From Vicinamibacterales bacterium (lineage in GTDB: Bacteria; Acidobacteriota; Vicinamibacteria; Vicinamibacterales; UBA2999), in NCBI GenBank assembly GCA_050247255.1, contig JBFWUM010000001.1, positions 30,653-94,652 on the forward strand: 64,000 nt of DNA, in the 5' to 3' direction. The notes under the pieces were generated by a model that ran no database searches, was not told the origin of the DNA, and worked only from the letters and a program-made list of their open reading frames with translations. The translations under genes were made by a program, and so were the position numbers. Positions 4,803-53,670 of the stretch are shown here, in pieces. Every line of letters starts with the position of its first letter. Within the stretch, counting starts at the first letter, position 1.

Positions 4803-5963
4803 GTGCGCGTCGTCCACGTGTGCGCGTACTTCGCCCCGGCGTTCGCCTATGGCGGCCCGCCCCGCTCGCTGCTGCGGCTGGCGCAGGCGCAACAGCAGCA
4901 GGGGCTGGCGGTACAGGTCGTCACGACCACGGCGAACGGCCGCGTCAACCTCGACGCGGCGGCTGCAGCCGCCGATCGCTTCGAAGGGGTGCCGGTGACC
5001 TACTGCCACCGCGCCCGGCCCCGGTGGCTGTTCCATTCGCCTGCGCTGCGTGGAGCGCTGTCCCGGGCCTTGAACGGCGCCGACATCCTGCACATCCACG
5101 GACTCTGGAACGCCGCGGTGTGGGGCGCGCATGCGGTCGCGTCCGCGCGGCGAGCACGCTACGTCCTGTCACCTCGCGGCATGCTCGCGCCGCAGGCGCT
5201 GGCGCACGATCGGTGGCGGAAGGCGGCCGCCTACCAGTTGTTCGATCGGCGCGTGCTTCGTGATGCGACGGTGCTTCACGCGACCTCCGAGCAGGAAGGC
5301 GACACGCTGGCCCGGCGCTGCGGGCGCGAACGCGTGGTGATGGTACCCAATGGCGTCGACCTGCCAACCGCCGTCGGCGGGGCGCCGGAGGTGCGTGCCC
5401 GCTTCGGCCTGCCGCCGGACGCTCCCCTCATCCTCTTCCTGGGCCGGATTCACCCGTTGAAGCGCCTCGACCTCCTGGCCGGCGCGTTCCTGGCGCTGCG
5501 CGCGGCGCATCAGCGGGCCCATCTCGTCGTCGCCGGGCCCGATGAAACGGGCCTGCGCGCCGGCCTGGAGCAGCAGCTCGCCCCGGTCGCCGGCGCCGTC
5601 ACCTGGACGGGGCGGGTGGACGAGGCCGAGAAGTGGGACCTGCTGTCGGAAGCGGCCGTGCTCGTGCTCTGTTCGGACTCCGAGAGTTTCGGCCTGAGCG
5701 TTGCCGAAGCGCTGGCGGCGGCGCGGCCGGTCGTCGTCACCCGGACCTGCCCGTGGTCGAGCGTGGAGGCGTCCGGCGCGGGCTTCTGGGTCGAGCAGCG
5801 CGCGGAGGCGATTGCCGCGGCCCTCGGCCGCGTGCTCGCCGACCCGGCCGCTGCGAAGGAGATGGGGGAGCGTGGACGGAGGCTCATCGCCGCCGACTAC
5901 TCGTGGGACAGCGCCGCCCGCCGGCTGACCGCCGTCTACGAGACGGCGCTCGCGGCGGCATGA
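4803..5963 (+). CDS. GT4 glycosyltransferase
   Basis: LFLGRIHPLKRLD, SESFGLSVAEALA. Confidence 0.9.
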   Translation: MRVVHVCAYFAPAFAYGGPPRSLLRLAQAQQQQGLAVQVVTTTANGRVNLDAAAAAADRFEGVPVTYCHRARPRWLFHSPALRGALSRALNGADILHIHGLWNAAVWGAHAVASARRARYVLSPRGMLAPQALAHDRWRKAAAYQLFDRRVLRDATVLHATSEQEGDTLARRCGRERVVMVPNGVDLPTAVGGAPEVRARFGLPPDAPLILFLGRIHPLKRLDLLAGAFLALRAAHQRAHLVVAGPDETGLRAGLEQQLAPVAGAVTWTGRVDEAEKWDLLSEAAVLVLCSDSESFGLSVAEALAAARPVVVTRTCPWSSVEASGAGFWVEQRAEAIAAALGRVLADPAAAKEMGERGRRLIAADYSWDSAARRLTAVYETALAAA

Positions 5964-7039
5964 CGACACCGTCGCGCGTGGTCGTTCTGACGCCCGTCGT
6001 CGGTGGCCGTGACGGTCTGTCCGAACTTAGCCGCCAGGTGATCACGGCGAGCGCCGGGGAGGGCGTCCCGGTGACCGTGCTGGCACTCGCCGGGGCTGCG
6101 CACTTTTCGCATCCGGCCGCGTCGATCGAGCTCGTGTCGGCGCGCGGGCATCGCGCCCGGCTCGTCCGCCATGTCGCCGTCGACAGCTTGCACTGGGGAC
6201 GGGGCACCCGGGTGATCGTCATGCATGCCAACCTGCTGCCGCTCGTCCTGCCCGCGACGCTCGGCCGGAGCGAGATCGTCGCCGTACTGGTCGGCATCGA
6301 AGCGTGGCGCCCTCTGTCGGTCCTCGAGCGCTCGGCGCTGCGACGCGTTCAGACGGTAGTGGCGATCTCGGCGCATACAGCGTCAGGGTTCGCGGCCGCC
6401 AATCCTGCATTCGCGACGTCGACCGTGCGGATCTGCCATCCGGCGGTACCTGAACTGGTGCCGCCGCTCCCTGCTGACCGCGCGCCCGGCTACGCGCTGA
6501 TGGTCGGGCGGATGTGGTCGGCGGAGCGCTACAAGGGCCACGACCGCGTGCTGGAGGCGTGGCCGGCGGTGCTGGCATCGCACCCGGGCGCTCGCCTGGT
6601 GGTCGCGGGCGATGGCGACGATCGGCCGCGGCTGATGGCAAGAGCCGCGGCGCTGGGGGTGGCGCCGGCGGTCGATTTCGTCGGTGCCGTCGATGATGCC
6701 CGGCTGGCGGCGCTCTATCGCGACTGTGCCTTCTTCGTGATGCCGAGCCGCGACGAGGGATTCGGGCTGGTCTATCTCGAGGCCATGCGCACCGGTCACG
6801 CATGTATCGCCAGCCCGGGAGCGGCGGCCGAGTTCATCACCCACGGCGTCAATGGCTGGCTCGTCGACCCCGGCGATGTCGCCGCCATAGCCGGCGCCTG
6901 CGTGCGGTTCCTGCAGGATCCGACGCTCACGGCCAGACTCGGACCGGCCGCCGCCGCCACGGTGTGTCGCGACTATCAGTTCGAGCAGTTTGCGGCGCGG
7001 TGGCGCCAGGCACTGGCAGGGTTGCCGGCACCATGCTGA
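5960..7039 (+). CDS. GT4 glycosyltransferase
   Basis: ATG overlaps upstream TGA; VGRMWSAERYKGHD, EGFGLVYLEAM. Confidence 0.9.
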   Translation: MTTPSRVVVLTPVVGGRDGLSELSRQVITASAGEGVPVTVLALAGAAHFSHPAASIELVSARGHRARLVRHVAVDSLHWGRGTRVIVMHANLLPLVLPATLGRSEIVAVLVGIEAWRPLSVLERSALRRVQTVVAISAHTASGFAAANPAFATSTVRICHPAVPELVPPLPADRAPGYALMVGRMWSAERYKGHDRVLEAWPAVLASHPGARLVVAGDGDDRPRLMARAAALGVAPAVDFVGAVDDARLAALYRDCAFFVMPSRDEGFGLVYLEAMRTGHACIASPGAAAEFITHGVNGWLVDPGDVAAIAGACVRFLQDPTLTARLGPAAAATVCRDYQFEQFAARWRQALAGLPAPC

Positions 7040-8787
7040 TCCTCGGCCTGAACGCCTATCACGGTGACGTGTCGGCCGTCTTGTTACGCGATGGCCAGCT
7101 GATCGCCGCCCTCGAAGAAGAGCGGTTCGTCCGCGTCAAGCACGTCTCCGGCGTCCCGGCCGCGGCGATGCGCGCCTGTCTGGAGATGGGGGGAGTCGCC
7201 GCCGGCCGGATCGATGCCTTCGCGGTGTCACGCGACCCGCGGGCGCATCTCTGGCGGAAGGCGCTGTTTGCGGCGACCCGTGCGCCGCGCCTGTCCATGA
7301 TCCGCGACCGCGCGGCGAACGCCCTGTCGGTGTCCCGCCTCCCGGGCGACATCGGCGCGGCGCTCGGCCTCGACGATCGTGACGTCGCCAGGCGGCTCCA
7401 TCATGTCGAACACCACCGGGCCCACCTGGCGAGCACGTTCTTCGCCAGTCCGTTCGACGAGGCGGCCGTGTGCGCCGTCGACGGATTCGGCGACTTCGTC
7501 AGCACGTCGAGCGGCCACGGCGAGGGGACCCGGCTGACAATCGACAACCGGGTGTTCTTCCCGCATTCGCTCGGCATGCTGTACCTCGCCGTCACCCAGT
7601 TCCTCGGCTTTCCCAACTACGGGGATGAGTTCAAGGTCATGGGGCTGGCGCCGTACGGCTCGCCCGATTACGTCCGCGAGCTGCGACAACTGGTCAACGT
7701 TGACGCCAGTGGCCAGGTCCGGCTCGACCTGCGCTACTTCAGCCACTGGAACGGCGGCGTGACGATGACGTGGGCGGGCGGCGCGCCGGCGATGGGCCCG
7801 GTCTTCACGCCCGCGCTTGGTGCGCTGCTCGGGGCGCCGAGACAGCCTGGTGAGCCGCTCGAGCCGCGCCACGAGGCCATCGCGGCGTCGCTGCAGGTCG
7901 TGCACGAGGAGGCGGTGTTCGCGATCCTTCGCGCGCTGCATCGGCGGCGGCCGACACCGCGCCTCTGTCTGGCCGGCGGGTGCGCGATGAACAGCGTCGC
8001 CAACGGCAAGATCCGGGCGCAAACCCCGTTCGAGGAGCTGTACATCCAGCCGGCATCTGGCGATAACGGCACCGCACTGGGGGCGGCCCTTCACGTCTGG
8101 CATGAGCGCGGCGGCCGCAAGCGGCTGCGGATGGAGCACGGCTACTGGGGCCCGGAATTCGCCGACGCCGATGTCGACGCCGCGCTCGACGGCCGCAACG
8201 CAGAGATCGCCGCTCGGAGCATCCGGCGCGCTTCGACGACGGATGTCGACGCGCTCTGCGACTGGGCCGCCGGCCGCATCGCCGGGGGGCTGGTCGTCGG
8301 CTGGTTCCAGGGACGCATGGAGTGGGGCGCGCGCGCCCTCGGCAACCGCAGCATCGTCGCCGATCCGCGGCGGCGGGACATGCGCGACATCATCAACGCC
8401 CGGATCAAGTTCCGCGAGAAGTTTCGGCCGTTCGCGCCGTCGGTGCTCGAAGAGGCGGTGCACGACTACTTCGTCGACGCCTGCCTCGATCCCTTCATGA
8501 TCCAGGTGTACCCGGTGCGTCCCGACAAACGGGACGTCATTCCCGCGGTCACCCATGTCGACGGTTCGGGACGGCTGCAGACCGTCTCACGGGCGCACAA
8601 TCCCCGCTACTGGGGGCTCATCGATGCGTTTCGCCGCATCACCGGCGTTCCGGTCCTGCTGAATACCTCCTTCAACGAGAACGAGCCGATCGTGCTGACG
8701 CCGGCGGAGGCGCTCGACTGCTTCCTGCGCACCGACATGGACGTGCTGGTGATGGGAACCCGGACCCTCGAGAAGGCGCCGCGCTGA
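7033..8787 (+). CDS. Carbamoyltransferase (NodU/CmcH family)
   Basis: LILGLNAYHGD, EEERF, EHHRAH, LAGGCAMNS, GARALGNRSI, THVDGSGRLQTV, LLNTSFN. Confidence 0.95.
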   Translation: MLILGLNAYHGDVSAVLLRDGQLIAALEEERFVRVKHVSGVPAAAMRACLEMGGVAAGRIDAFAVSRDPRAHLWRKALFAATRAPRLSMIRDRAANALSVSRLPGDIGAALGLDDRDVARRLHHVEHHRAHLASTFFASPFDEAAVCAVDGFGDFVSTSSGHGEGTRLTIDNRVFFPHSLGMLYLAVTQFLGFPNYGDEFKVMGLAPYGSPDYVRELRQLVNVDASGQVRLDLRYFSHWNGGVTMTWAGGAPAMGPVFTPALGALLGAPRQPGEPLEPRHEAIAASLQVVHEEAVFAILRALHRRRPTPRLCLAGGCAMNSVANGKIRAQTPFEELYIQPASGDNGTALGAALHVWHERGGRKRLRMEHGYWGPEFADADVDAALDGRNAEIAARSIRRASTTDVDALCDWAAGRIAGGLVVGWFQGRMEWGARALGNRSIVADPRRRDMRDIINARIKFREKFRPFAPSVLEEAVHDYFVDACLDPFMIQVYPVRPDKRDVIPAVTHVDGSGRLQTVSRAHNPRYWGLIDAFRRITGVPVLLNTSFNENEPIVLTPAEALDCFLRTDMDVLVMGTRTLEKAPR

Positions 8788-8790
8788 GCC

Positions 8791-9996
8791 GTGCACGTCT
8801 GCTTCTTCAACCGCGCCTACTGGCCGGACCTCTCGGCCACCGGGCAGCTGCTCACCGAGATGGCCGAAGGGCTGGCCGCCCGCCACGGCTGGACGGTCAC
8901 GGTCGTCACCGGTTATCCCCTGCGCACCGACGTCAGACCGTCTTCGCGCGAAGCGCGCAACGGCGTGACGATCGTGCGCGCCGCGGGCACGACGTTCTCG
9001 CCGCGCCGCTTTGCCGGCCGCGCGTCGAACTATGTCTCGTACTTCGGCTCGGCGGCGCTGCGTGGACTGACGGTACGCCGCCCCGACGTCGTCGTGGCGA
9101 TGACCGACCCGCCGATCATCGGCCTTGCGGCGCTGGCGCTGGCGCGACGCGCCGGGGCGCCGTTCGTGTCCTGGTGCCAGGACATCTTTCCCGAGGTCGC
9201 CGTCCTGCTCGAGGACTTCCAGAGCAGCGCGGTGAACCGCGCCCTCAGCGCCGTCAATCGCTTTCAGTTGTCGCAGGCGGCCGCGATCGTGGCGCTCGGC
9301 GAGACGATGAAGCACCGGCTGGTTACCGGCAAGGGCGCCGATCCGCAGCGCATCCACATCGTCGACAACTGGGCCGACTGCTCACAGATCACGCCGGGTG
9401 ATCGCGTGACGTCCTGGGCCGAGGCGCAGGGGCTGGCCGACCGGTTCGTCGTGCTGCACGCGGGCAACCTGGGGCTGTCGCAGGACCTCGACAACCTGAT
9501 GCATGCCGCGGCCCGGCTGCGCCGCCGGCCCGACATCCTGTTTCTATTCGTCGGTGGCGGCGTTCGCGAATCGGCGTTGCGAGCGCAGGCCGAGTCGCTG
9601 GGCCTCGACAACGTGCGCTTCGTGCCGCACCAGCCGAAGGACGCCATGCCGCCGTGGTATGCCGCATCGGACGTGTCGCTGATTTCGCTGCGGCGCGGCC
9701 TGGCCGGCGTCATCGTCCCGAGCAAGACCTACAGCGCGCTGGCCGCCGGCCGGGCCTGCATCGCCGCGGTCGAGCCGGAGTGTGAAGTGGCGGGGCTCGT
9801 GACCGCGGCGGCGTGCGGCCTCGTGGTGGCGCCGGGCGATCCGGACGCGCTGGCCAGGGCCATCGAGTCGCTGGCCGACGATCGTCCGCGCGCGGCGGCG
9901 ATGGGGCGTCGGGCCCGCGCCGCCGCGCTGCAGTTCGACCTGCCGCGGCAGGTCGCCCGGTTCGACGCCGTGCTGCGGAGTGTCGCCAGACGGTGA
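8791..9996 (+). CDS. GT4 glycosyltransferase (WbuB/WcaI-like)
   Basis: YWPDLSATGQLLTE, QDIFPE, AGNLGLSQDLD, VPSKTYSALAAG. Confidence 0.88.
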   Translation: MHVCFFNRAYWPDLSATGQLLTEMAEGLAARHGWTVTVVTGYPLRTDVRPSSREARNGVTIVRAAGTTFSPRRFAGRASNYVSYFGSAALRGLTVRRPDVVVAMTDPPIIGLAALALARRAGAPFVSWCQDIFPEVAVLLEDFQSSAVNRALSAVNRFQLSQAAAIVALGETMKHRLVTGKGADPQRIHIVDNWADCSQITPGDRVTSWAEAQGLADRFVVLHAGNLGLSQDLDNLMHAAARLRRRPDILFLFVGGGVRESALRAQAESLGLDNVRFVPHQPKDAMPPWYAASDVSLISLRRGLAGVIVPSKTYSALAAGRACIAAVEPECEVAGLVTAAACGLVVAPGDPDALARAIESLADDRPRAAAMGRRARAAALQFDLPRQVARFDAVLRSVARR

Positions 9997-10595
9997 GCAA
10001 GCGGCTGCTCGACATCGTGCTCTCGGCCGCGGGTCTGATCCTGCTGTCGCCGCTCTGGCTGGCCATTGCCGCCGCGATCAAGGCCGGCGATGGCGGCCCG
10101 GTGCTCTTCCGGCAGCCGCGCGTCGGGCGCGACGGACGCCCGTTTGTCGCCTACAAGTTCCGGTCGATGGTGCCCGATGCGGCGCGGCTGCCGCCGCGCC
10201 AGGCCACCGCGGACGATCCGCGAGTGACGCCGGTCGGCCGCCTGCTCCGGGCGACGGCGCTCGACGAGCTGCCGCAGTTGGTGAACATCCTCCGCGGCGA
10301 CATGAGCGTTGTCGGGCCCCGCCCCTTGATGCCGGGCGAGATCGAGGTCCGCGGCACCGGGGAGGTCACCGCGCTGGCGGAGGTGCCGGGCTACGCCGCG
10401 CGCCATCAGGTCCGCCCCGGACTGACCGGCCTGTCGCAGGTCTATGCGCCACGGGACGCGCTGCGCGCCCGCAAGTTCCGACTCGATGCGCTCTACGTTC
10501 GACGACAGACGCTCTGTTTCGACCTGTATTTGATCCTCATGTCTTTCTGGATTACCGCGCGCGGTCGATGGGAAACGCGCGAACGCAAGTTCTGA
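9993..10595 (+). CDS. Priming polyprenyl-phosphate sugar transferase (Bac_transf)
   Basis: KRLLDI, YKFRSM, DDPRVTPVGRLLR, LDELPQL, GDMSVVGPRP, PGLTGLSQV; GTG overlaps upstream stop. Confidence 0.93.
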   Translation: MSKRLLDIVLSAAGLILLSPLWLAIAAAIKAGDGGPVLFRQPRVGRDGRPFVAYKFRSMVPDAARLPPRQATADDPRVTPVGRLLRATALDELPQLVNILRGDMSVVGPRPLMPGEIEVRGTGEVTALAEVPGYAARHQVRPGLTGLSQVYAPRDALRARKFRLDALYVRRQTLCFDLYLILMSFWITARGRWETRERKF

Positions 10596-10607
10596 TCGGC
10601 CGGCCGT

Positions 10608-10613
10608 TATAAT
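10608..10613 (+). promoter_or_regulatory. Putative -10 box (TATAAT) upstream of reductase/RiPP genes
   Basis: Perfect TATAAT in a GC-rich intergenic gap; no convincing -35. Confidence 0.4.
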
Positions 10614-10641
10614 GTCCGGGCCGGCCCGGCTGGCAGCGTCG

Positions 10642-11802
10642 ATGCTGGATGTCGCAATCATTGGAGGCGGGCCCGGAGGCCTGTACACCGGCCTGCAGCT
10701 TGCCGAGGCCGGGTACCGCGTTGCCGTGTTCGAAGAACACGACGGCATTGGACAGCCCGTCCATTGTACCGGGGTGCTCGCCGGCGAGGCGTTCGCCGAG
10801 TTCGGCCTGCCTCAATCGTGCGTGCTCAACGAGCTGGCGACAGCACGCTTCTTTGGTCCCGGCGGCGCCGAGTTGTCGTACACCACGCCGCGTACGGAAG
10901 CGATCGTCGTCGATCGAGCGGCGCTCGACCGCTCGCTGGCGGAACGTGCCACCGCGGCGGGCGTCGAACTGCACCTCGGCGCGCGCGTCATCGGCGTCGA
11001 GCGCGAATCGCGGTGCATGGTGGTCCAGCGCGCCAGCGAGCGTGTCCAGGCGCGGGCCGTCGTCCTGGCGTGCGGCGCCAGCTACGGGCTGCAGCGCCGG
11101 CTCGGGCTCGGCATGCCGCCGGTCTCGCTGAACTCTGCGCAGCTCGAACTCCCGGCCTCCCGCAGCGGCGACGTCGAGGTCTACTTCGGCGCCGACGTCG
11201 CGCCGCGCGGTTTCGCCTGGACGGTGCCCGTGATGCGCCCTGCCGGCCACTTCGTGCGGGTCGGGTTGATGGGGCATGGGGACCCGTCGGCCAGCTTCAG
11301 GCGCTTCTTCGAGCGGATGGCCCCGTCGTGGGGCATTCCGCTGGCGGACCCGCCGGAGCCCCGGAAGCGTTTCCTCCCGCTGGCGTCGTTGCCGCGCACG
11401 TTCGGCGATCGGCTCCTGGCCGTCGGCGATGCCGCTGGCCTGGTGAAGCCGACGACCGGGGGCGGCATCTATTACAGCCTGGTGAGCGCGCGGCTGGCCG
11501 CCGAGACGCTGGCGCCGGCGCTGGCAGCCGATCGCCTCGATGCGCGGACGCTGTCGACGTTCCAGGATCGGTGGCGGCAGCGGCTCGGGCCTGAGCTGCG
11601 CGCCCAGCTGGCCCTTCGCATGCTGGCGCAGCGCCTGTCAGACGATGAAATCGATAGCCTGTTCGAGCTGGCGCGGACCAATGGCGTCATGCCGCTCATC
11701 CACCGGGCCGCCCAGTTCAACCAGCACCGCCACCTGATCGCCGAGCTGTTCCGGCACATCCCGGCGCGCCGGCTCCTGTTCCGCAGGCTGCTGCCGGTAT
11801 GA
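10642..11802 (+). CDS. FAD-dependent oxidoreductase, geranylgeranyl reductase family (alternative start 10612)
   Basis: DVAIIGGGPGG Rossmann motif, VDRAALD, VGDAAGLVKPTTGGGI. Confidence 0.88.
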   Translation: MLDVAIIGGGPGGLYTGLQLAEAGYRVAVFEEHDGIGQPVHCTGVLAGEAFAEFGLPQSCVLNELATARFFGPGGAELSYTTPRTEAIVVDRAALDRSLAERATAAGVELHLGARVIGVERESRCMVVQRASERVQARAVVLACGASYGLQRRLGLGMPPVSLNSAQLELPASRSGDVEVYFGADVAPRGFAWTVPVMRPAGHFVRVGLMGHGDPSASFRRFFERMAPSWGIPLADPPEPRKRFLPLASLPRTFGDRLLAVGDAAGLVKPTTGGGIYYSLVSARLAAETLAPALAADRLDARTLSTFQDRWRQRLGPELRAQLALRMLAQRLSDDEIDSLFELARTNGVMPLIHRAAQFNQHRHLIAELFRHIPARRLLFRRLLPV

Positions 11803-12089
11803 GCCCGGTTCACCGCGACGCGCGGCTCCGGGTCCCCGATGACGTCGTCTTCCGCGAGATCGCGGGCGAGTCGATGATCCTCCACCTCGGGTCCGGCATC
11901 TATTTCGGCCTCGATGGCGTCGGCACGCGCGCCTGGCAATTGCTGGCCGAGCACGGATCGATCGAGGGGGTCGTCTCGGCGATGGCCACCGAGTTCGATG
12001 CCGACGCCTCGACCATTTCCGCGGACGTGACCGCCCTGGTCAACGAACTCCTCCGCAAGCACCTCCTCGAGATCACACCCGACCCGTGA
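11799..12089 (+). CDS. PqqD-family RiPP recognition element (lasso B1)
   Basis: 96 aa; VVFREIAGESMILHL..GIYFGLDGVGTRAWQLL...ISADVTALVNEL; ATGA overlap with reductase. Confidence 0.93.
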   Translation: MSPVHRDARLRVPDDVVFREIAGESMILHLGSGIYFGLDGVGTRAWQLLAEHGSIEGVVSAMATEFDADASTISADVTALVNELLRKHLLEITPDP

Positions 12090-13822
12090 GCGGTCTCGGC
12101 GGCGTGCTCTACCTGGACGCCGGGCCTGCCACCGCAGGCGACGTGTCTCCGCTGCTGGCGGCGCAGGCGCATCGCGGCCCGGACGGTACGGCACTCGCCG
12201 TTGCCGGCAGCGTGGCCCTTGGTGTTGCGCGGCTGCGCACGATGCCGGACCACCTCGACATCGTCGAAACTGCCGATGGCCTGGTCGCGGCGATGGATGG
12301 TTGCGTTGACGATCGGCGCGCGTTGGCGGAAACGCTGAACGTCGGCGGTGCACCCTCAGGACTGGAGCTGATCCTCGAGGGGTACCGGCGCTGGGGCATC
12401 GGCGTCGTTGACAGGCTCGTCGGCGAGTGTGCCGTCGTCCTCTGGGATGCGCGTCTCCGGCGTCTCGTGTTGTTCAGAGACGTGATTGGCATGCGGCCGC
12501 TCTGTTACCGCGTTGCCGGTTCGCGGCTGCTCATCGCTTCGGAGCCGCAGGCGCTGGCGCGGACCCTGCCCACCAGCGTGAATGAGGGTTACCTCGCCGA
12601 GCATCTGGCGGACGATGTGGCGAGCCGAGACGAGACTCTCTTCAGGGATGTCTACCGCGTGCCGCCCGGCGATGTCGTTCTCCACGAGCGCGGGCGCCTG
12701 CGGCGCTCGCGCTACTGGCACCCGGCAGCAAAGACGATCCGCTATCGCCGGCCGGACGACTACCTCGAACACTTCCGGGAGTTGTTCGGCCACGCCGTCG
12801 AGGATCGATTGCCGGCCACTGGCGCGGCGCTGACGCTCAGCGGCGGCATCGATTCGTCAATCGTCGCCGCCGAGGTCGCGGCGATGCGCGCGGACGGACA
12901 CGCGGGCGCGGCCGCGACAGCGGCGCTGACGCTGTCGCACCCGGGGCGGCCTGAAGACGAAACCGGCCGTGCCGCCGAGACGGCAGCTCGACTCGAGATG
13001 CCCTGGAGGTCGGCGGCGGCGCTGGTTCCCGGGGAAGAGTATTTCGCGGAGGCTGCCCGCCGCGCGGCGGATCTGCCGGAACCACCCACCGCGGCGAGCG
13101 CGCGTCCCCTGCGCGACGCCGTGCGCGCTTCCGGTCACCGGGTGGTGTTGACCGGGTACGGCGGCGACGAATGGTTCTCGGCACATCAGGAGCCGCGGCA
13201 TCTGCGGGCCTGGCACCGCGCGCCCGCATGGAGCCGCCGAGCGATCCGCCGCCTGCTCGGTCGTTCGAAGGTCCCGGCGTGGATTGATCGGGGCTTTGCC
13301 GCCAGGGTGGACCTGGCCCGCCGGCTCGGGCACTGGGAGCCAGAGGTGCGGCTGCCGACTGGGGCAGCGACGCGGCTGTTCCATGGCGCGATGCACGGGG
13401 AACTGCTCTGGCGGCGCGAATTGGCCGAACGGCTTGCCGCCTGGGCAGGCTTTGAAGAGCGGTCACCGCTCTTCGATCGCCGCGTGGTCGAGTTCGCGTG
13501 CGCCCTGCCAAACGACGTGCGCGCGCGTGACGGGGTCAACAAGTGGATCCTGCGACGCGCCTACCGGGCCGTGTTGCCGCCGTGGGCGGCGAATCCGCCC
13601 GCCGCAGCAGGTTTCAACTGGATTGTCGCTGATTGCCTGCAGCGGTTCGGTGGGATTGACCGGGTGGAACGGTCCGCGGCGGCGCGCAATGGCTGGCTGG
13701 ACAGCGCGGCCCTGCGGCAGTTGCATCACGATCTCGAAGCCGGGAACCCGGGGAGCGTCCTGCCGCTCTGGAACGCGCTTGCCGTCTCATACTTTCTCGA
13801 CAGCGTCTCCCTCCCGCGTTGA
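12086..13822 (+). CDS. Asparagine synthetase-like lasso peptide cyclase (C protein)
   Basis: MSG start (no Cys1), HRGPDG, LSGGIDSS, LTGYGGDE, RSPLFDRRVVEFACALP; flanked by RRE and precursor. Confidence 0.88.
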   Translation: MSGLGGVLYLDAGPATAGDVSPLLAAQAHRGPDGTALAVAGSVALGVARLRTMPDHLDIVETADGLVAAMDGCVDDRRALAETLNVGGAPSGLELILEGYRRWGIGVVDRLVGECAVVLWDARLRRLVLFRDVIGMRPLCYRVAGSRLLIASEPQALARTLPTSVNEGYLAEHLADDVASRDETLFRDVYRVPPGDVVLHERGRLRRSRYWHPAAKTIRYRRPDDYLEHFRELFGHAVEDRLPATGAALTLSGGIDSSIVAAEVAAMRADGHAGAAATAALTLSHPGRPEDETGRAAETAARLEMPWRSAAALVPGEEYFAEAARRAADLPEPPTAASARPLRDAVRASGHRVVLTGYGGDEWFSAHQEPRHLRAWHRAPAWSRRAIRRLLGRSKVPAWIDRGFAARVDLARRLGHWEPEVRLPTGAATRLFHGAMHGELLWRRELAERLAAWAGFEERSPLFDRRVVEFACALPNDVRARDGVNKWILRRAYRAVLPPWAANPPAAAGFNWIVADCLQRFGGIDRVERSAAARNGWLDSAALRQLHHDLEAGNPGSVLPLWNALAVSYFLDSVSLPR

Positions 13823-13847
13823 AATGCCCCCATCGGGCGGGTACCAT
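13819..13847 (+). promoter_or_regulatory. Putative sigma70 promoter of precursor gene (TTGAAA-N17-TACCAT)
   Basis: TTGAAA 13819-13824, 17-bp spacer, TACCAT 13842-13847, GAGG 13854-13857, ATG 13862. Confidence 0.6.
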
Positions 13848-13861
13848 AGCGCCGAGGCCAT

Positions 13862-14014
13862 ATGACCACACCCCATGAACCCAAGCGCACCGGCCAGGAG
13901 AAGCGCCCTTACCATCGGCCGAAGCTGACCGAGTACGGGTCGGTCGCCAAGCTGACCAGGACCGGGGCCGGCACCATCCTCGAAGGGTCGTCGCCGAACA
14001 AGATGATGATGTAG
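13862..14014 (+). CDS. Lasso peptide precursor, 50 aa: MTTPHEPKRTGQEKRPYHRPKLTEYGSVAKLTR-TGAGTILEGSSPNKMMM
   Basis: Translated by hand (below the ORF-track cutoff); exact YxxPxLxxxGxxxxxT leader motif; Glu at core position 8; directly after cyclase. Confidence 0.92.
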   Translation: MTTPHEPKRTGQEKRPYHRPKLTEYGSVAKLTRTGAGTILEGSSPNKMMM

Positions 14015-14022
14015 CCTGCGCC

Positions 14023-15156
14023 GTGTCGTTGGTACTCGAAGAGCATCGGCGCTACCTCGCCGATTCGGTCCGGCTCGACGCGTTCAGCCGGGCGATCAGC
14101 GCCGTCGTTCGACCCGGCGATCGAGTCCTCGACCTGGCCAGCGGCAGCGGCATTCTCGGCTTCCTCGCCTGCCGCGCCGGCGCGGCCCGTGTGTACGCCA
14201 TCGACAACAGTCCGGCCATCCAGCTTGGCCGCGACCTGGCCAGCGCCAACGGCCTCGGCGATCGCATCACCTTCCTCCGCGAGTTTTCCACGCGCGCGAT
14301 CCTTCCCGAGCCTGCCGACGTGCTCGTGTTCGACCAGCTCGGCCCCATGGGGTACGAGGCCGGCGTGTTCGAGTTCGGACGTGATGCGAGGCAGCGGCTC
14401 CTGGCACCAGGCGCACGCATCATTCCCTCCGCCGTCGATCTCTCGTTCGCCGCGGTCGAGAGCTCGGTCCTCCGACAGCAGGTCGCCTTCTGGAGTGAAC
14501 CGGGCCGGGATTTCGACCTGTCCAGCATCGGGCCCCTGGCCGCGAACACGGTGTACACGTCGGAGGGCGGGGATCTGCGCCGGTTGAGCGACGCCGGCGT
14601 GGCAGCCTCGCTCGACATCGGCGGCGATGCCACGCACATCCAGGCGGCCTTGACACTGTCGCTTCGTGAACCCGGGCGGCTCGACGCCCTCTGTGGATGG
14701 TTCACCGCCCACCTCGCCCCGGGTGTCACCATGACCAACGCTCCCGACGCGGCGGCGCGCATCGATCGTCGCGTGGGGCTGCTGCCGATCGAGCCCGCCG
14801 TGCCGGTGCGGCCTGGAGACCAACTCACGATCACGCTGTTGATCAGGCCCGCCGACGAGCAGATTGCGTGGAGTGGTGAGGTTCGCCGCGATGGACAGGC
14901 GGTCGCGACGTTCCGTCACAGTTCCTTCCAGGGCGAGATCATTCCTGACGAGGCGCGGCAGGCGGCGGATCCGGCCACGCGGCCGCGGCTGTCGGCCCTC
15001 GGCGAAGCGCACCGCACCGTCCTGCAGATGTGCGACGGCACCGTGCCGGTTGCCGACATCGAGCGCGCCATTCTCGAGCGGCACGCGTCGGCACTGGGGA
15101 GTCCTGCCGCCGCCGCGGCGTTCGTCCACGAGGCGATCAACGCCAACTGCCGCTAA
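14023..15156 (+). CDS. Class I SAM methyltransferase, PRMT-like, with C-terminal PqqD-like helical segment
   Basis: EHRRYLADSVR, VLDLASGSGILG, RAGAARVYAID, LAPGARIIP, CGWF; tail VLQMCDGTVPVADIERAI. Confidence 0.85.
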   Translation: MSLVLEEHRRYLADSVRLDAFSRAISAVVRPGDRVLDLASGSGILGFLACRAGAARVYAIDNSPAIQLGRDLASANGLGDRITFLREFSTRAILPEPADVLVFDQLGPMGYEAGVFEFGRDARQRLLAPGARIIPSAVDLSFAAVESSVLRQQVAFWSEPGRDFDLSSIGPLAANTVYTSEGGDLRRLSDAGVAASLDIGGDATHIQAALTLSLREPGRLDALCGWFTAHLAPGVTMTNAPDAAARIDRRVGLLPIEPAVPVRPGDQLTITLLIRPADEQIAWSGEVRRDGQAVATFRHSSFQGEIIPDEARQAADPATRPRLSALGEAHRTVLQMCDGTVPVADIERAILERHASALGSPAAAAAFVHEAINANCR

Positions 15157-15160
15157 CGAG

Positions 15161-16087
15161 ATGCACTGTTACCGCGTCGGTGACCTGACGGTCGCGTCAG
15201 CGTCCGCCGTGGCCGGATTGCACGAGATCGAGACGGCTTCCACCCTGTGGCGCTTCGTCATCCGGCGCGGCGACCCGCCGCGGGTGCGCCGTGCGTATCA
15301 CCGCGCCGACAGCCCCGGGTATACGCACCGGTGGCGCACGCTGGGCCGCCTCGGCTTCGGGCACATCATCCACTTTCACCGCGCCGCCACCTTCGTGCTC
15401 GACGTGGCCGGTCAGCAGATCACGGCCTTCCAACGCCGCGGCCAGTCGCGCGAGGAGATCCAGCAGTTGCTGGTGGCGCAAGTGCTGCCGCTCGTCCTCG
15501 GCCTGGGAGGACGCGTGGTGTTGCATGCCAGCGCGGCGGTGTCGGCGCGCGGGGCGCTCGCGTTTGTCGGCGCGCCGCGTCAGGGAAAGTCGTCGATTGC
15601 GCTGGCGCTCGCCGCGCGCGGCTATGCCGTGGCGGCGGATGATTGCCTGGTGATCGATCCGCGCCGCGGCTGCCGCATCGTGCCAGTGGATGTGGGCGTC
15701 CGCTTGTGGCCGGACGCCGCGCTCCGACACGGGGCGACATCGTCCGGACAGCGTGCCGGGTTTGCAGCGCATGCCCGTGGTAAGCGGCGTGTGCCGCTGG
15801 CCGACCTTGGCATACGCGGCGTCGCGCGCCGGCCTGTCCTGCGTCGGCTGTACCTGCTCAATCCCGGCGGCCGCCGGGTCTCGTCGGCGCCCGTGGCGCC
15901 GAGGGAAGCGGTCATTCGATTGCTCGAGGCGAGCTTCCAGCTGGATCATGACGCCGCAGACGCCATGCGGCAGGCCTTCGAGAACCTGACACGGGTCGTT
16001 GAGGCCGTCGAGGTGCGGCGGCTCTCGTATCCGCGATCACCAACCTGCCTGCCCGAGATCGTGCGCACGCTCGAAGCCGACGGATAG
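15161..16087 (+). CDS. HPr kinase-like P-loop kinase (paeninodin PadeK-like)
   Basis: VLHASAA, GAPRQGKSS Walker A, ADD; ATG 4 nt after methyltransferase stop. Confidence 0.82.
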   Translation: MHCYRVGDLTVASASAVAGLHEIETASTLWRFVIRRGDPPRVRRAYHRADSPGYTHRWRTLGRLGFGHIIHFHRAATFVLDVAGQQITAFQRRGQSREEIQQLLVAQVLPLVLGLGGRVVLHASAAVSARGALAFVGAPRQGKSSIALALAARGYAVAADDCLVIDPRRGCRIVPVDVGVRLWPDAALRHGATSSGQRAGFAAHARGKRRVPLADLGIRGVARRPVLRRLYLLNPGGRRVSSAPVAPREAVIRLLEASFQLDHDAADAMRQAFENLTRVVEAVEVRRLSYPRSPTCLPEIVRTLEADG

Positions 16088-16110
16088 AAGACAGGCGCCT
16101 CGTACGCAAT

Positions 16111-16139
16111 AAAGGGCTCCGGAACCTCCGGAGCCCTTT
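16111..16139. terminator. Bidirectional intrinsic terminator
   Basis: AAAGGGCTCCGGA-ACC-TCCGGAGCCCTTT hairpin between convergent genes. Confidence 0.85.
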
Positions 16140-16161
16140 GTGTGTACGAACCGCCTGGCGG

Positions 16162-19100
16162 CTACGGAATGAGCGTCAGTCGGCCGCTGCTGTTCATCGT
16201 TAAGCGGTCAGCGAGCACCGTGCCCAGGAGCTGCGCGCCGCCGTTGATCGTCACGGTCCTCGTCGGCACGAACACCGATCCATACAGGCTCATGCTGTTG
16301 TTGAGCTTGAGGTTGCCGTTCGTGACGCGCAGCGTCACCCAGTCGGGCCGTGCCGCCGCGCCGATGTTCCCGGTCGGAGCCATCTGGTTGCGCACGGTGA
16401 TGATGACCGGCCCGACGACCTGGATCTGGCTGCCGGCGTTGAGCGTCAGCGTCTGGAAGTTGTAGACCGCCGGCTCGGTCGCGCCGGCGACACCGAGGAT
16501 GAAGACGCTCCCGGAGTTGGCGATGAACGTCCGGTAGGTCCCCGGGGGTACCGCCACCTGGCGTCCGCTCTGGTTGATGGTCAGGTCACGCAGCGTCGCG
16601 AAATTACCCGGCGTCTGGCTGTTGTTGTTCAGCTGTACGTTCCGGGTGCCGCCATAGTTGGTCGGCGGGTTCGCAATCGTCGGCCAGGTTTCCGGATCCG
16701 TCCGGCGGACGACGTGGCCGACCGTGGCGCCGCTGTTGATCGTCACGCGGTGGTTGGTCGGCGTGGCCGCGCCGCTGCCGTTGATCGTCCCCTGGTAGTT
16801 CGGCGTGCCGTTGATGGTAATCGCCGGCATGCCGCGCATCAGCAGGTCGCCGGTCAGCGTCGCGTTGCCGTTGAACTGGATGTTCACGGCATTCATGATG
16901 TGGACCGTCCCGTCGACGATGCTGCTGGAGTTGAAATAGGTCTCGCGGCGAATCTTCGCGCCGGCCGCAGGTGTCGCCGTCACCTCGATCGTCACCGTCG
17001 CCGCGGCGCTTGCCGCGGTGCCCCGCAGCGCCCGGTAGGTGAACGTGTCCGTTCCGGTGAAGCCGTCTTCAGGCGTGTAGGTGAACGCGCCGTTGGCCTG
17101 CAGCGTGAGCGTCCCGTTCGCGGGTGTCGTGACGACCTCGGCCGTCAACGAGCCCTCGCCGGGGTTCTCGTCGTTGCTGAGCACGCCTGGCGCCGGCGTG
17201 GTGAGCGCCGTGTTGATCCGCGTTTCGTAGGCATCAGCCACCGCGGTCGGCGCCCCGGCCGTGACCGTGATCGTGACGGTCGTGCTGGCGCTCTCGGCCT
17301 CATCCTCGTCGACTGCGCGGTAGGCGAAGGTCGCCGTTCCCACGAAGCCATTGGCCGGCGTGTAGGTAAACGAGCCGTCCGGGTTGAGCGACACCGTCCC
17401 GCTCGAGGCAGGCTGCGCCAGTTCGGCCGTCAGCATGCCGCCATCGGGATCGGAATCGTTGTCGAGCACCCCTTCGCCGCTGACGGTGAGGGTCGTGTTG
17501 CCCTCGACCGTGTAGGTGTCGGCGGTGGCCGTCGGCGCGCGATTGACCCGGATGCTGACGGTGGCCGTGTTGCTGGTCTGCGAGCCACGGGTGATGCGAT
17601 AGGTGAACGTCGTCGTCCCGCCGAAGTTCGCGGGCGGCGTGTAGGCAAACGCCCCGTTGGTCTGGAGGACCACGCTGCCGTTGCCCGGGTTCGAGACAAT
17701 GGCGACCGTCACCTGCCCCTGGCCTTCCGGCACCTCGTCATTGCCCAGGACGCCAGGCGTCTGCACGTTGAGCACGGTCCCGGCGCTGGCGACGTACTGG
17801 TCGTCGACGGCGGTCAGCGGCGCCGCCACCGTGATCGTCACCGTCACCGGCTCGCTCTCGCCCTCGTTCTCGTCGCGGGCGCGGTAGGTAAAGGTCACCG
17901 AGCCGCTGAAGCCGGTGGCCGCGACGTAGCTGAAGGAGCCGTCCGGGTTCAACGTCAGCGTCCCGTTGGCCGGGCCGCTGACCAGGACCGCCGTCAGGTC
18001 GTCGTCGTCGCCGTCAGAATCGTTGTCGAGCACGCCCGGCGCCGGCACCTCCAGCGTGTCGCCGGCGGTGGCTTCGTACGAGTCAGGCGCGCCGGTTGGA
18101 ACCTGGTTCGGCGCGGTGATGGTCCAGGTGAAGCTCGCGGACCCCGATGCGCCCATCGTGTCGTTCACGGTCACCGTCACCGAGTGCGTCCCGACGCCGC
18201 TCGCCGCCGGCGTGCCGCTGATGATGCCGGTGCTGCCGGCGATGGCGAGCCCGGGGGGGAGGCCGGTGGCACTGAACGTGAGCGCCTGCTCGTCGGGATC
18301 GCTGGCGGCGATCTGGAGCTGGACCTCGGTGCCGGCGACCGTCGTCTGGTTCGTCGCCGAGACCGACGGCGGCTGGTTGGTCGGTCCGCCGTTGCACGCG
18401 TTCAGCAGCGGACCGTTGGCCACCGTCGAGTCCCACCGGCAGACGCTGTCAACCGCGCCGCCGTTTCCCTGGTCGTGCGGCACCCCGACGAACACGCGTC
18501 CGGTGCAGCTGCCGCCGTTCTCGTCCGTGGCTTCGAAGCCGATCTCGTAAACGCGGCCGTTCTGGCCCCCCTGGCGCTCGCGGCGCACTCTCGCCTCGTC
18601 GTCGCCGACGCCCCAGCCGTCGATGGCGAACGCGCCGTCACCCAGGGTGTCGGTCGGCTCGTCCTGCCAGATGTACTTCACCACCACGTCGAGGTCATCG
18701 CCATCGCCGTCGGGATCGGTGATCCCTTCGATCTCGATTTCGTCGGTGCGGCGATGGTTCGGCGGCCAGAGCGTCGACGGCGAGGCCGTTGCCGCGGAGC
18801 AAATCGGCGGGGCGTTCTGCGACAGGACCGTGATCGTGACCGTCGCCGTGGCGGCGAGCCCGTCGCCGTCGATCGCATCGTAGGTGAAGGTGACCGGGCC
18901 GGTGTAGCCGAGCGTGCTCTCGTAGGTGAAGCCGCCGTCGGCCAGCAGCATCAGCGTTCCGCGTGACGGGCTGGTCACGCGCGCAGCGGTCAGCACGGCG
19001 TCGTCGACATCCGTGTCATTGGTCAGCACGCCGGGAGCGGGGACGACGAGCGTCTGTCCTTCCACCACCGTGTAGCTGTCGTTGACCGCCGTCGGCGCGT

Positions 19101-22100
19101 CGTTGACCGACGTCACCGTGACCGTCACCGTCGCCGTGCGGCTCTCCGTGCCGTCGCTGATGGTGTAGGTGAACGTGACGGTGCCGCTGAAGTTGGCGGC
19201 CGGCTCCAGGCGCACGGTGCCGTTGGTGTTGATGGTCACGGCGCCGCCGCTTGCCGGCTGCGTCACCGCGGTGACCGAGAGGCTGTCATCGTCCGGGTCG
19301 CTGTCGTTGGCCCTGACGTCGATGTCGAGCGGCGTGTCCTCCGGCGTCGTCGCGGTGTCGTCCACCGCCACGGGCGGGTCGTTGACCGGCGTCACTGTGA
19401 CGGTGACCGTCGCCGTGGCGCGGTCATCGTCCGGATCGGCGAGGGTGTAGGTGAACGACGCGGTGCCGCTGTAGTTGGCAGCCGGCGTGAAGGTAATCGT
19501 GTTGTCCGAGACCGAGATGCTGCCTGCGGCCGTCGGCGGCGGCGTCGTGGCCACGATCGTGGCCGTCCCATCCGGGCTGCCGTCGTTGTCGAGCACGTCG
19601 ATCGTAACCGCGGTGTCCTCAGCGGTTGTCGCGCTGTCGTTGACGGCCGTCGGCAGGTCGTCGATCGGCCGCACCGTGACCGTGACGGTGGCGGTGTCCG
19701 TGTCGCCGTCCGCGTCGGTGATCGTGTAGCTGAAGGTCGCCGTGCCGAAGAAGTTGGCGGCGGGGGTGAACAGGATCGCCCCGCCCTGGATGGCCGCGGT
19801 GCCGTGTGCAGCCGGCGGCGCAGTGATGCCGGTCAGCGTGAAGTCGTCGCCGTCCGGGTGCGTGTCGTTCGCCGTCACCGCGATGGTGGCCGCGGTCTCT
19901 TCGTCAGTCGCCGCGCTGTCGTCCACCGCGTTCGGCGGGTCGTCGACGGGCGTGACGGTGACGAAGACGGTGGCGCCGTCGGTCAGGTTGGAGCCGTTAC
20001 GGATGTCGTAGGTGAACGTATCCTCGCCGAAGAAGTTCGTGGCCGGCGTGTAGCGCAAGGTGCCGTCCGGATTCTGGGTGACGGTGCCGCGGCCCTGCGT
20101 GAAGGAGACGACGCTCAGCGCATCACCGTCAGGGTTGGCGTCGTTCAGCAGGACGGCGACGTCGATCGGCGTTTCTTCCGGCGTCGTGACGAAATCGTGG
20201 CTGGCGTTCGGCGGGTCGACGGCGCCGGTCACCGTGATCGTCACGGTGCCGATGGCCGTCAGCCCGCCGCTGTCGCGCACCCGGTAGGTCAGGGAATCGG
20301 CGCCGGTGTAGTCGGCTGCTGGCGTATAGAGAATCGTGTTGCCGCTGATCTCGGCCCGGCCGTGCTGCGGCGCCTGCACGATCGCCACCAGTTCGAGCGT
20401 GTCGCCGTCATCCGGGTCGGAATCGTTGCCGAGCACCAGCACGCTGCCCGGCGTGTCCTCCGCGACGGTCAGGGTGTCGCTGGCACCGACCGGCGGCCGG
20501 TTCAGCACATAGGTTGCCGTGCGGACGGTCTCGGCGTTGGTGGCCCAGTCTGTCCCGAAGAAGGTGACGGTCGTCGAGCCGCCGGCCGTCAGCACCAGCG
20601 TGGTGCTGCTCCCGGACACGACCACCTGGCTGCTGCACGCGGCAGGGGCATCCGGCGCGTCGCACGCGGCGCCCGACAGCTGATAGCGCACGTTGCGGAC
20701 GCCCGACATCGGGTCGGCGCCGCCCAGCGTCACCGTGAGTGGGCCGACATAGGTGCCGCTCGCCGGCGAAGCCGTCGTTTGCGGCGCCGTCTTGTCGATG
20801 GCGACGACCGGCGAGAAGACGGTGGCCGTGTTGCCGACCAGGTCGGTCAGCGTCACCTGCACGCGCTGGTCCATGCCTTCAGCGGTGAACGTCGCGCTCG
20901 ACGCGAGCACCGACGCGCCGGCCGGCGGTGTGCTGGCCTCGACCATCGTGACGCTCGTCGGTGTCTGGGTGTCGGTCTTCACCGCCGTCAGCGTGACGTC
21001 GGTCTTCCACCAGCGGCGGTCGTTCGGGTCCGTGCCGACGTGGGCTGGTGCCTCGAACGTGACCGTCGGCGGCTCCAGGTCGAGCCAGAAGGCGAGCTGC
21101 TGCTCGCCGCTGGGATTGCCGTAGCCGTCCCACGCCTGGAAGACGATCGTGTGCCGGCCCGATTCCGTCAGGCTGATCAGTGCGCTGCCGCCGCCGACTT
21201 TCGTTTCACCGTCGATGTCGACCGGCGCCGTCGGATTGGCTTCGTTCGGCGTGAACACCACGGTGTGCGTCCCGGGCTGACGCGCCTCTTCTGGCCCAAT
21301 GAAGCGATAGGTGATGCGGCTGATACCCGACGATTCCGCGCTGCCGCCCCCGGGCGAGGGGTCAGACGCGATCAGGTTGATGCGGCCGTCCCCGTAGATC
21401 GGCTCGCTGTTGTACGAGTATTCGGTGCCCAGCGGGTCGGCGGTCACAACCGGCGGATTCTGCTCGCACGACTGGCAGACGATCGGGACCGTGACCGTCT
21501 TCGTCGCCGCCGCCGTCGCGTTCACGCCGTTGACCGGGTTCCCCTCCGCGCCGATGGTGAACACCATGTCGGCGGCCGAGGAGTCGAGCGCCTTGAACCG
21601 GAACTTGTAGGTGAGCACCTGCCCCTGCTGCAGATCGGCTTCGGGCAGCGGCCCGGTCACCGCCTCGGCGATCGGCACGCTGATCGGCAGCGAGTTGGCG
21701 TCCACCGGCTGGGCAGGCCCCGTCCACGACAACGTCGGCTCGACATCCAGAACAGTCGCCTTCAGCGGCGGCACGACGATGCTGTAGGTGACGTAGAAGT
21801 CCTCGTTCGGGCGGACGCTGGTCGTCGATCCGCCCGAGTCGGCCGGTGCCCACGTCTGGTCGAACACCGCCAGCGCCGGGATATCGAACATCTGCACTTT
21901 GTCGAGGCCGGGGACGACGACGAAGTATCGGCCGACCTGGTCCTGCGCCACTGCGCGCGGGAAGCCGGCGAGCCCCCCCTCGGACCGCAGCCGGAACGCG
22001 AACTCCGCTTCCGGTTCCGCCGCTTCGAGGTTGACCTCGAAGACCGAGATCTCCTGGTCGCGGTGGTTGGCGATGACCAGCCGCTGCCAATCGGGCATTG

Positions 22101-26448: not shown

Positions 26449-26467
26449 CACCCGGCGCCAGCCGGGG

Positions 26468-28690: not shown

Positions 28691-28697
28691 TGTCCGA

Positions 28698-53667: not shown

Positions 53668-53670
53668 GCC

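Follow-up and report, generated by a model that had tools for sequence, protein, structure and literature searches.

What is made by the genes that follow the last glycosyltransferase of a polysaccharide operon in a Vicinamibacterales bacterium (assembly GCA_050247255.1)? The question was addressed for a stretch of 64,000 nucleotides of contig JBFWUM010000001.1 (70% G+C), hereafter called the window. An earlier note on this DNA had described a lasso-peptide cluster, i.e. a cluster for a peptide made on the ribosome and modified after translation (RiPP), in which a FAD reductase, a methyltransferase and an HPr-kinase-like protein accompany the core enzymes. We put the probability at about 0.7 that the locus consists of a precursor peptide and four enzymes of a lasso-type RiPP pathway and belongs to a widespread family. 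The five genes concerned are the following.

11799–12089, + strand: B1, a PqqD-type RiPP recognition element (RRE; PF05402, 61.4 bits, cut-off 23.4)
12086–13822, + strand: C, an AsnB-like ATP-dependent lactam synthetase, the lasso cyclase candidate (Asn_synthase, 123.8 bits)
13862–14014, + strand: A, a precursor peptide of 50 residues (NF033521 lasso_leader_L3, 24.2 bits, cut-off 19)
14023–15156, + strand: a methyltransferase dependent on S-adenosylmethionine (SAM), with the fold of a type I protein arginine methyltransferase (PRMT; AlphaFold model, Foldseek, profile against the PDB)
15161–16087, + strand, likely ATG at 15161: an HprK-like P-loop kinase (TIGR04352, 26.4 bits, cut-off 200)

Relatives of the locus and their gene order

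The methyltransferase was chosen as bait because it is the least usual gene of the cluster. At least 358 relatives, nearly all about 378 residues long, were present in the protein collection, and relatives occurred at 315 of the 598 pattern-matched places in species-representative genomes. The cluster is therefore no one-off but a member of a large family, a point that the earlier note had missed. For counts of neighbouring genes, 80 loci were fetched and searched by tblastn or with hidden Markov models (HMMs). Their taxa, assigned by record title, include Nitrospira, Acidobacteriota, Rokuibacteriota, Binataceae, Methylomirabilota, some Actinomycetota and one member of the Burkholderiales.

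The gene order across the 80 loci was PqqD–(B2)–cyclase–precursor–methyltransferase–kinase, B2 being the leader peptidase. A kinase was found in 77 loci (at most 600 nucleotides after the methyltransferase in 64 of them), a cyclase in 74, PqqD homologues in 66 (tblastn) and a B2 protease in 60. The hallmark of the family is the PRMT-fold methyltransferase with an HprK-like kinase directly after it. Two loci from Nitrospira metagenome-assembled genomes (L008 and L010) carry a precursor–methyltransferase–kinase–nucleotidyltransferase module with neither PqqD, B2 nor cyclase in the 10 kb upstream; these are tailoring modules detached from the core lasso enzymes. Among 40 relatives searched, a methyltransferase orthologue (E < 1e-40; 32–47% identity) was detected in 6 of 24 genomes of the same family and in 2 of 16 of the same order, and its distribution among relatives is therefore patchy. 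A scan of metagenome contigs with the methyltransferase of the window yielded no relative.

The precursor peptide and its predicted core

The match of the small open reading frame (ORF) to the lasso-leader model NF033521 covers residues 17–35; the leader ends in ...YHRPKLTEYGSVAKLTR and contains the motif YHRPKL. With a strict leader pattern, 76 precursor ORFs were found in 71 of the 80 loci (77 precursors with that of the window), so that homologous loci do hold a conserved precursor, which had been proposed as a check on the lasso assignment. The cleavage register of the window's precursor was set after KLTR by alignment with these 76 relatives; in this register it reads YHRPKL...LTR/TGAGTILE (the slash marks the cleavage site), with Thr at −2 and Glu at core position 8. 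The core predicted in this way, with cleavage after ...KLTR, is TGAGTILEGSSPNKMMM, with a ring from Thr1 to Glu8.

These features recur throughout the family. Thr occupies position −2 in 75 of the 77 precursors, and 76 have Asp or Glu at core positions 7–9 (at position 8 in 56, at 9 in 18 and only at 7 in 2). The core begins with Gly in 42 precursors, with Thr in 12 and with Ser in 11; Thr1 of the window is therefore not odd. Ser and Thr are common at core positions 4–5, Met makes up 12% of all core residues, and 62 of the 77 precursors end in Cys-Leu after a Met-rich tail. A C-terminal Ser was found in none of the 77, and the core of the window ends in ...NKMMM. Arg is present in 32 of the 77 cores and absent from that of the window.

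The closest precursors, P0122 (84% identity) and P0123 (67%), have almost the same core as the window (TGSGTILEGSTPNKRMP and TGSGTKLEGSSPNKRMA, respectively; the pattern TG[AS]GT[IK]LEGS[ST]PNK is kept in both), and their leader N-termini diverge. Both were encoded on the same contigs as methyltransferases that are 62% identical to that of the window (P0002 with P0122 and P0003 with P0123). Conservation of the core, while the N-termini of the leaders vary, argues for selection on the core. The window's precursor and these two relatives lack the Cys-Leu end, and the three look like a distinct and conserved subfamily.

The candidate cyclase and the RRE

The AsnB-like protein starts with MSGLGG and thus has Ser in place of the Cys2 nucleophile. 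Its relatives start with MSG, MSA or VSG, and of the genome's own 12 Asn_synthase paralogues 7 start with MCG. In a FastTree phylogeny the methyltransferase-linked cyclases formed one side of a branch, with a weak Shimodaira–Hasegawa-like (SH-like) support of 58, and the window's cyclase fell inside their Acidobacteriota subset (SH-like support 94). Grouping with Gln-dependent AsnB enzymes had been named as an outcome that would speak against a lasso cyclase; the protein stood apart from the Gln-dependent MCG paralogues of its own genome and together with the methyltransferase-linked cyclases. The best NCBIfam match of the cyclase was the lasso cyclase model NF033535 (209.3 bits, cut-off 525), and that of PqqD was lasso_PqqD_Bac (43.5 bits, cut-off 80), both below the curated cut-offs. 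The cut-offs of the HPr-rel-A system were not reached either: the kinase scored 26.4 bits against the 200 required by TIGR04352, and the HPr-rel-A PqqD model, under the accession that we take to be the right one, was absent from the five NCBIfam matches of the window's PqqD.

Overall, the earlier lasso reading stands with regard to the RRE, the Cys-less cyclase, the YHRPKL leader, Thr at −2 and Glu8, but not with regard to the leader peptidase: precursor, PqqD and Cys-less cyclase are present, and B2 is absent from the cluster.

The missing leader peptidase

The absence of B2, a defining lasso gene, had been overlooked. PF13471 gave two matches in the genome (completeness 98.9%) and none in the window, and an HMM built from the B2 proteins of 60 related loci had no match in positions 1–44880 of the window. 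The overlapping FAD, PqqD and cyclase genes leave no space for it. The single convincing B2 of the genome lies on another contig, C11 (NF033537, 85.7 bits, cut-off 33). The second PF13471 match, on contig C34, was rejected as a B2, being a 526-residue general Transglut_core protein beside an ABC ATPase.

The C11 gene is part of a second, paeninodin-like lasso cluster (5305–10556 of that contig), which comprises a precursor with a C-terminal Ser, a cyclase, a sulfotransferase, an HprK homologue, B2 and NTP_transf_5. An orphan lasso-type PqqD is found on contig C75 (5501–5920; NF033536, 71.7 bits, cut-off 80), where it adjoins a gmhA-like gene.

Loss of B2 is not confined to the window. It was missing in 20 of the 80 loci. 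In six of these (L023, L041, L068, L077, L082 and L086) a cyclase is present and the flanks extend for 5 kb or more to either side. Two more are L008 and L010, with no cyclase in the 10 kb upstream. In the remaining 12 the flank is shorter than 5 kb on one side or both, mostly because a contig ends there. Five of the six well-covered loci group beside the window's branch in the methyltransferase tree (SH-like supports 91 and 90). PF13471 was then searched for in the genomes of five of the six; one strong B2 was present elsewhere in four of them and none in the fifth, a genome whose completeness is not given. These orphan B2 genes (L118, L119, L120 and L121, in genomes G043, G042, G045 and G041, respectively) thus occur in genomes that have a B2-less cluster of the methyltransferase type. 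Within about 8 kb on each side of the four genes, where the contig allows, no PqqD, cyclase, kinase or methyltransferase of the family was found. An apparent link between B2 loss and Lys in the core tail, noticed by eye, was dropped, as Lys is also common in Acidobacteriota loci that contain B2.

The recurrence of B2-less loci, together with a B2 elsewhere in four of the five genomes, makes a detached peptidase that would work in trans the simplest reading. The retention of B1 and of a full leader with Thr at −2, a known peptidase determinant (PMC10368454), likewise implies cleavage of the B2 type, probably in trans. Lasso formation in systems that lack a leader peptidase is on record as well (PMC6993621, PMC12070363).

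Alternatively, the locus could be a decaying lasso remnant that yields no product after loss of B2, of an adjacent nucleotidyltransferase and of the Cys-Leu end. There is indeed no B2 in the window and no NTP_transf_5 gene after the kinase, the precursor lacks the CL end that 62 of the 77 family members have, and the terminal branches of methyltransferase and cyclase are long. Yet none of the five frames is interrupted, the genes are closely coupled, methyltransferase and kinase retain every residue that is invariant in their alignments, the CL-less core has been kept in two relatives with methyltransferases of only 62% identity, and loss of B2 recurs in six covered loci, with a detached B2 in four of five genomes. 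We therefore consider decay unlikely.

Somewhat less probable still is a modified peptide that is not a threaded lasso, with the AsnB-like enzyme making another amide (e.g. a side-chain link) or a branched-cyclic product. The lack of B2 in cis and the scores below the curated lasso cyclase and lasso PqqD cut-offs would fit such a product, and for pseudomycoidin produced in the absence of kinase and nucleotidyltransferase, the available text of PMC6993621 reports an unthreaded peptide. However, the precursor bears every sequence mark of a lasso substrate, marks that are common to relatives with B2 (60 of 80 loci), and Thr at −2 would serve no purpose if the leader were not cleaved.

Several observations weigh against the assignment to a lasso-type pathway or limit its reach. 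B1, cyclase and kinase all score below the curated NCBIfam cut-offs. Identity to any fetched relative is at most 46% for the methyltransferase and 37% for the cyclase, with branches of 0.81 and 1.15 changes per column, respectively, and the tree supports are FastTree SH-like values only. The core differs from 62 of the 77 family precursors in lacking the Cys-Leu end, and neither an exporter gene nor an adjacent nucleotidyltransferase was seen at the locus. B2 is lacking in cis, the C11 protein being a candidate only; the C11 cluster in turn lacks a PqqD (B1), so that B1 and B2 could be paired in more than one way among the window, C11 and C75.

The methyltransferase

The AlphaFold model of the methyltransferase (mean predicted local distance difference test score, pLDDT, 90.8) matched type I PRMTs over about 320 residues in Foldseek (PRMT6, E 2e-27; PRMT1, template-modelling (TM) score 0.83). 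The family profile against the PDB gave PRMT6 with an E-value of 1.1e-42. Pfam reported only PrmA, Methyltransf_31, Methyltransf_25, Cons_hypoth95 and PRMT_C. Like PRMT1 and PRMT6, the enzyme has a Rossmann domain followed by a beta-barrel; it differs from them in altered double-E and THW loops, in an extra helical C-terminal domain and in substrates that are mostly free of Arg. In the alignment with PRMT6, the Glu of 'SEW' corresponds to an invariant Asp104, the Glu of 'HES' to a nearly invariant Ala113 and the Trp of 'THW' to an invariant Arg249, as judged over 21 methyltransferase sequences. These are the positions of the double-E and THW motifs of PRMTs.

Because the double-E and THW residues are lost and most cores contain no Arg, the enzyme is, as judged from these sequences, a PRMT-fold protein and not an arginine methyltransferase. 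The former description as PRMT-like thus holds for the fold, which both Foldseek and the profile search recover, but not for arginine methylation, since the arginine-binding residues are replaced and most cores offer no Arg. A pocket that has lost two acids and gained an Arg suggests an anionic or neutral acceptor, such as a carboxylate, a phosphate or a thiol.

The additional C-terminal domain is conserved, comprises about 55 residues and carries the motif LCDG. That it might be a PqqD-like RRE was considered and found no support: the profile–profile comparison with the PqqD family of the cluster gave a probability of 0.3% (E 0.2), and this part of the model is made up of helices alone. A complex prediction for methyltransferase, precursor and SAM, run without controls, scored 0.02, compared to a mark of 0.32.

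The kinase

The kinase had no match in Pfam and matched TIGR04352 with 26.4 bits (E 3.3e-6), far under the cut-off of 200. His122, the P-loop residues Gly142-Lys143-Ser144 and Asp160-Asp161 are invariant in 29 kinase sequences. The model (pLDDT 89.7) retrieved phosphoenolpyruvate (PEP) carboxykinases and the C-domains of HprK/P in Foldseek, with TM scores of 0.48–0.53 and E-values of 5e-5 to 7e-4; the folds of PEP carboxykinase and the HprK/P C-domain are related. Motifs and structural matches together bear out the earlier HPr-kinase-like assignment, and the protein is a P-loop kinase of the HprK/PEP carboxykinase fold. It is 25% identical to the kinase of the C11 cluster. Its target on the predicted core cannot be a C-terminal Ser, because that core ends in Met.

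Proposed pathway and comparison with known systems

We infer every step of the following pathway. B1 would bind the YHRPKL leader of the precursor. The kinase would phosphorylate a Ser or Thr of the core, either Thr5, which aligns with the conserved Ser/Thr at positions 4–5, or Ser10/11, and the methyltransferase would add one or more methyl groups to an acceptor other than arginine. By analogy with known lasso kinases and StspM, both enzymes probably act on the linear precursor. The leader would be cut after Thr-Arg by a B2 encoded elsewhere, for which the C11 protein is the only convincing candidate. The Cys-less AsnB-like enzyme would finally join the amine of Thr1 to Glu8, leaving a ring of eight residues and a tail GSSPNKMMM.

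A bolder version of this pathway goes further: the kinase would phosphorylate a Ser/Thr of the ring and the methyltransferase would then methylate the phosphate (or a carboxylate, or the near-terminal Cys), giving a large, Met/Cys-rich and possibly metal-binding family of lasso peptides in Nitrospira, Acidobacteriota, Rokuibacteriota and Binataceae. In several lineages, among them that of the window, a detached B2 would act in trans, and in the window's genome it would be shared with a second lasso cluster. This proposal is speculative and improbable. If it is true, phosphate methylation would add to RiPPs a modification on which the papers searched are silent.

HprK-type lasso kinases act on linear precursors (PMC8498205), and phosphorylation of Ser3 by a lasso kinase is on record (PMC10368454). 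The modifications known for lasso peptides comprise C-terminal methyl esters, aspartimides formed via homologues of protein isoaspartyl methyltransferase (PIMT), phosphorylation, glycosylation and acetylation, and further citrullination, hydroxylation, epimerisation, prenylation and a second isopeptide bond (PMC13352647, PMC9266682, PMC8498205). As far as the available text of these three sources goes, none of the modifications listed there uses an enzyme of the PRMT fold.

With the clusters of paeninodin and pseudomycoidin, which encode an HPr-kinase homologue K with or without a nucleotidyltransferase N and a sulfotransferase, the locus shares the split B1, the AsnB-like cyclase, the YxxPxL leader with Thr at −2 and an HprK-like P-loop kinase in the operon. 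The C11 cluster of the same genome is a textbook example of this type. In contrast to the paeninodin type, the locus lacks B2 and an adjacent nucleotidyltransferase and has a PRMT-fold methyltransferase ahead of the kinase. Moreover, the paeninodin-type acceptor is a C-terminal Ser according to the text at hand of PMC8498205, whereas the core in the window ends in Met. A closer parallel for the kinase is BsfK of the Bsf system of Bradymonadales, which acts on Ser3 in the ring region and fits the Ser/Thr at positions 4–5 of the family. The Bsf precursors have Ile at −2, unlike the Thr of the window's family, and the system has its own B2; no methyltransferase is mentioned in the portion of PMC10368454 from which these data come.

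Methylated lasso peptides likewise depend on a SAM-dependent methyltransferase encoded in the cluster, either a C-terminal O-methyltransferase (lassomycin, StspM) or one of the PIMT type (cellulonodin-2, lihuanodin). The known enzymes, in the available text of PMC9266682, were modelled on mitomycin 7-O-methyltransferase or are PIMT homologues, whereas the one described here has the type I PRMT fold. Triculamin and leaderless pseudomycoidin resemble the locus in that their clusters encode no B2. As far as its description was available, triculamin formation requires, besides the precursor, a cyclase and a third enzyme; the locus differs in keeping B1 and a full leader.

The literature search covered papers without their supplementary material, which may hold Acidobacteriaceae precursors and RODEO tables. 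Within this scope no paper was found on a PRMT-like methyltransferase in a lasso cluster, nor on lasso clusters of Nitrospira, Vicinamibacterales, Rokuibacteriota or Binataceae, and the earlier statement that no characterised example of this enzyme combination is known was borne out. We thus read the locus as a real lasso-type cluster, in a reduced form without B2, of a widespread and apparently uncharacterised family. It is not a new kind of system, and the wider family would probably be picked up by standard lasso-mining tools. Lasso peptides attract interest as stable scaffolds and as antibiotics, and new tailoring enzymes widen the range of what can be built. Uncultured soil and nitrifying bacteria carry the family very often, and a cluster that has lost B2 while keeping B1 and a full leader is a natural experiment in which one leader peptidase might serve two lasso clusters.

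The flavoprotein and the polysaccharide operon

Upstream of the cluster, on the + strand, lie several glycosyltransferases of family GT4 and a carbamoyltransferase, followed by two genes that connect this operon with B1.

9813–10595 (ORF), + strand: a Bac_transf priming polyprenyl-phosphate sugar transferase (PF02397, 202.9 bits, residues 63–247)
10612–11802, + strand: a flavoprotein (FAD) of the geranylgeranyl-reductase family (TIGR02032, 176.3 bits, cut-off 158.8)

The Bac_transf protein is the final glycosyltransferase of the polysaccharide operon. It scored 243 bits with TIGR03025, under the cut-off of 295.55, and its true start is probably later than the ORF start at 9813. The FAD gene starts at 10612, which corrects the previous value of 10642. 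All genes of the earlier description were present in the order given there, on the + strand and tightly spaced after the priming glycosyltransferase. From Bac_transf through the kinase the intergenic gaps are 16, −4, −4, 39, 8 and 4 nucleotides; the FAD/PqqD and PqqD/AsnB-like pairs each overlap by 4 nucleotides.

In principle, the flavoprotein and the link to the polysaccharide genes could reflect peptide tailoring, the product being a lasso peptide that is reduced or carries lipid or sugar. The FAD and PqqD genes share 4 nucleotides. Of the 12 loci with a homologue (> 100 bits), 7 have it immediately ahead of B2/PqqD, and in one locus (L027) cyclase, precursor, methyltransferase and kinase lie on one strand and the FAD gene, B2 and PqqD together on the other. 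A 2026 review mentions that lasso peptides can be prenylated (PMC13352647, as far as its available text goes). However, no homologue was found within 10 kb of the methyltransferase in 68 of the 80 loci, including all those of Nitrospira, Rokuibacteriota and Binataceae. In each of the 11 loci long enough to show it, the FAD gene lies 3' of Bac_transf, as its immediate neighbour in 10, and with respect to B2/PqqD a single nucleotidyltransferase intervenes in one locus and a distance of 6–7 kb separates the FAD gene from the lasso genes in four. No prenyltransferase was seen, and since all 12 loci are Acidobacteriota by record title, shared ancestry can account for the adjacency. On this distribution the flavoprotein was rejected as a tailoring enzyme, and a role in peptide decoration is very unlikely, the least probable of the alternatives considered here. 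It travels with Bac_transf and was assigned to the polysaccharide module, not to the lasso set in which the earlier note had placed it.

Possible transcription signals and flanking genes

Further features of the window, read from the sequence or found by profile searches, are given below.

13819–13847, + strand: promoter-like site TTGAAA-17-TACCAT (consensus match only)
16114–16145, no strand assigned: hairpin GGGCTCCGGA-ACC-TCCGGAGCCC followed by TTTGTGTGT (read by eye)
23316–24569, + strand: NTP_transf_5 nucleotidyltransferase (PF14907, 116.4 bits)
24410–25126, + strand: 2-oxoglutarate (2OG)-Fe(II) oxygenase (PF13640, 51.8 bits), after the NTP_transf_5 gene
55492–61025, + strand: a second, identical copy of the whole locus (offset +44,880)

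The sequence GAGG stands 4 nucleotides ahead of the ATG of the precursor gene, which is separated from the cyclase gene by the 39-nucleotide gap. The sigma-70-like site TTGAAA-17-TACCAT includes the cyclase stop codon, lies immediately ahead of the precursor gene and could be the precursor's own promoter; a promoter scan of 8 kb gave one site, compared to 0.5 expected from shuffled sequences. The hairpin has a stem of 10 bp and a T-rich tail and lies between the kinase gene and a convergent gene for a protein of 2386 residues. It looks like an intrinsic terminator common to both sides, and it was absent from the list of a consensus terminator scan.

The convergent gene (16162–23322, − strand) encodes about 10 cadherin-like/Big_9 repeats, a He_PIG domain and an NHL repeat, and this adhesin gene separates the kinase gene from the NTP_transf_5 gene. 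The nucleotidyltransferase to which the earlier note pointed is therefore not found after the kinase: the NTP_transf_5 gene is 7 kb off, beyond the adhesin gene, and it is possible that it is a distal member of the cluster or part of the polysaccharide locus. A gene of this type stands after the kinase in L030 and after the FAD gene in L023, L077, L079, L082 and L086.

The locus occurs twice in the window, positions 1–19120 being identical to 44881–64000 (0 mismatches over 19,120 positions). The repeat is part of an exact tandem duplication in the contig (22586–112355 of C1), with a unit of 44,880 bp, a junction at position 36814 of the window and a 10-bp microhomology, CAGCGCCACC, at the duplication junctions. 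The junction was looked for in Logan contigs from three runs of one study, which may be that of the source sample, and only short pieces of low depth span it. In run X1 this is a 50-base piece with a depth of 13, compared to 35–38 for its neighbours, and the junction-spanning piece of X3 has 30 letters on one side, below the 31-letter rule. The main X1 contig continues into the left flank of unit 1. The duplication could be a subpopulation variant or an assembly artefact.

Past the adhesin gene the polysaccharide locus goes on (24410–28759) with the 2OG-Fe(II) oxygenase, a Wzy_C-type polymerase/ligase (− strand) and a Wzc-like GNVR/AAA_31 protein (− strand). Near the start of the window two consecutive ORFs of 294 and 301 residues (1572–3402, + strand), the first with weak GATase_7 and Asn_synthase matches, have a summed length close to that of one AsnB-like amidotransferase; to judge from these matches, the pair may be a split or very divergent AsnB-like gene in the polysaccharide operon.

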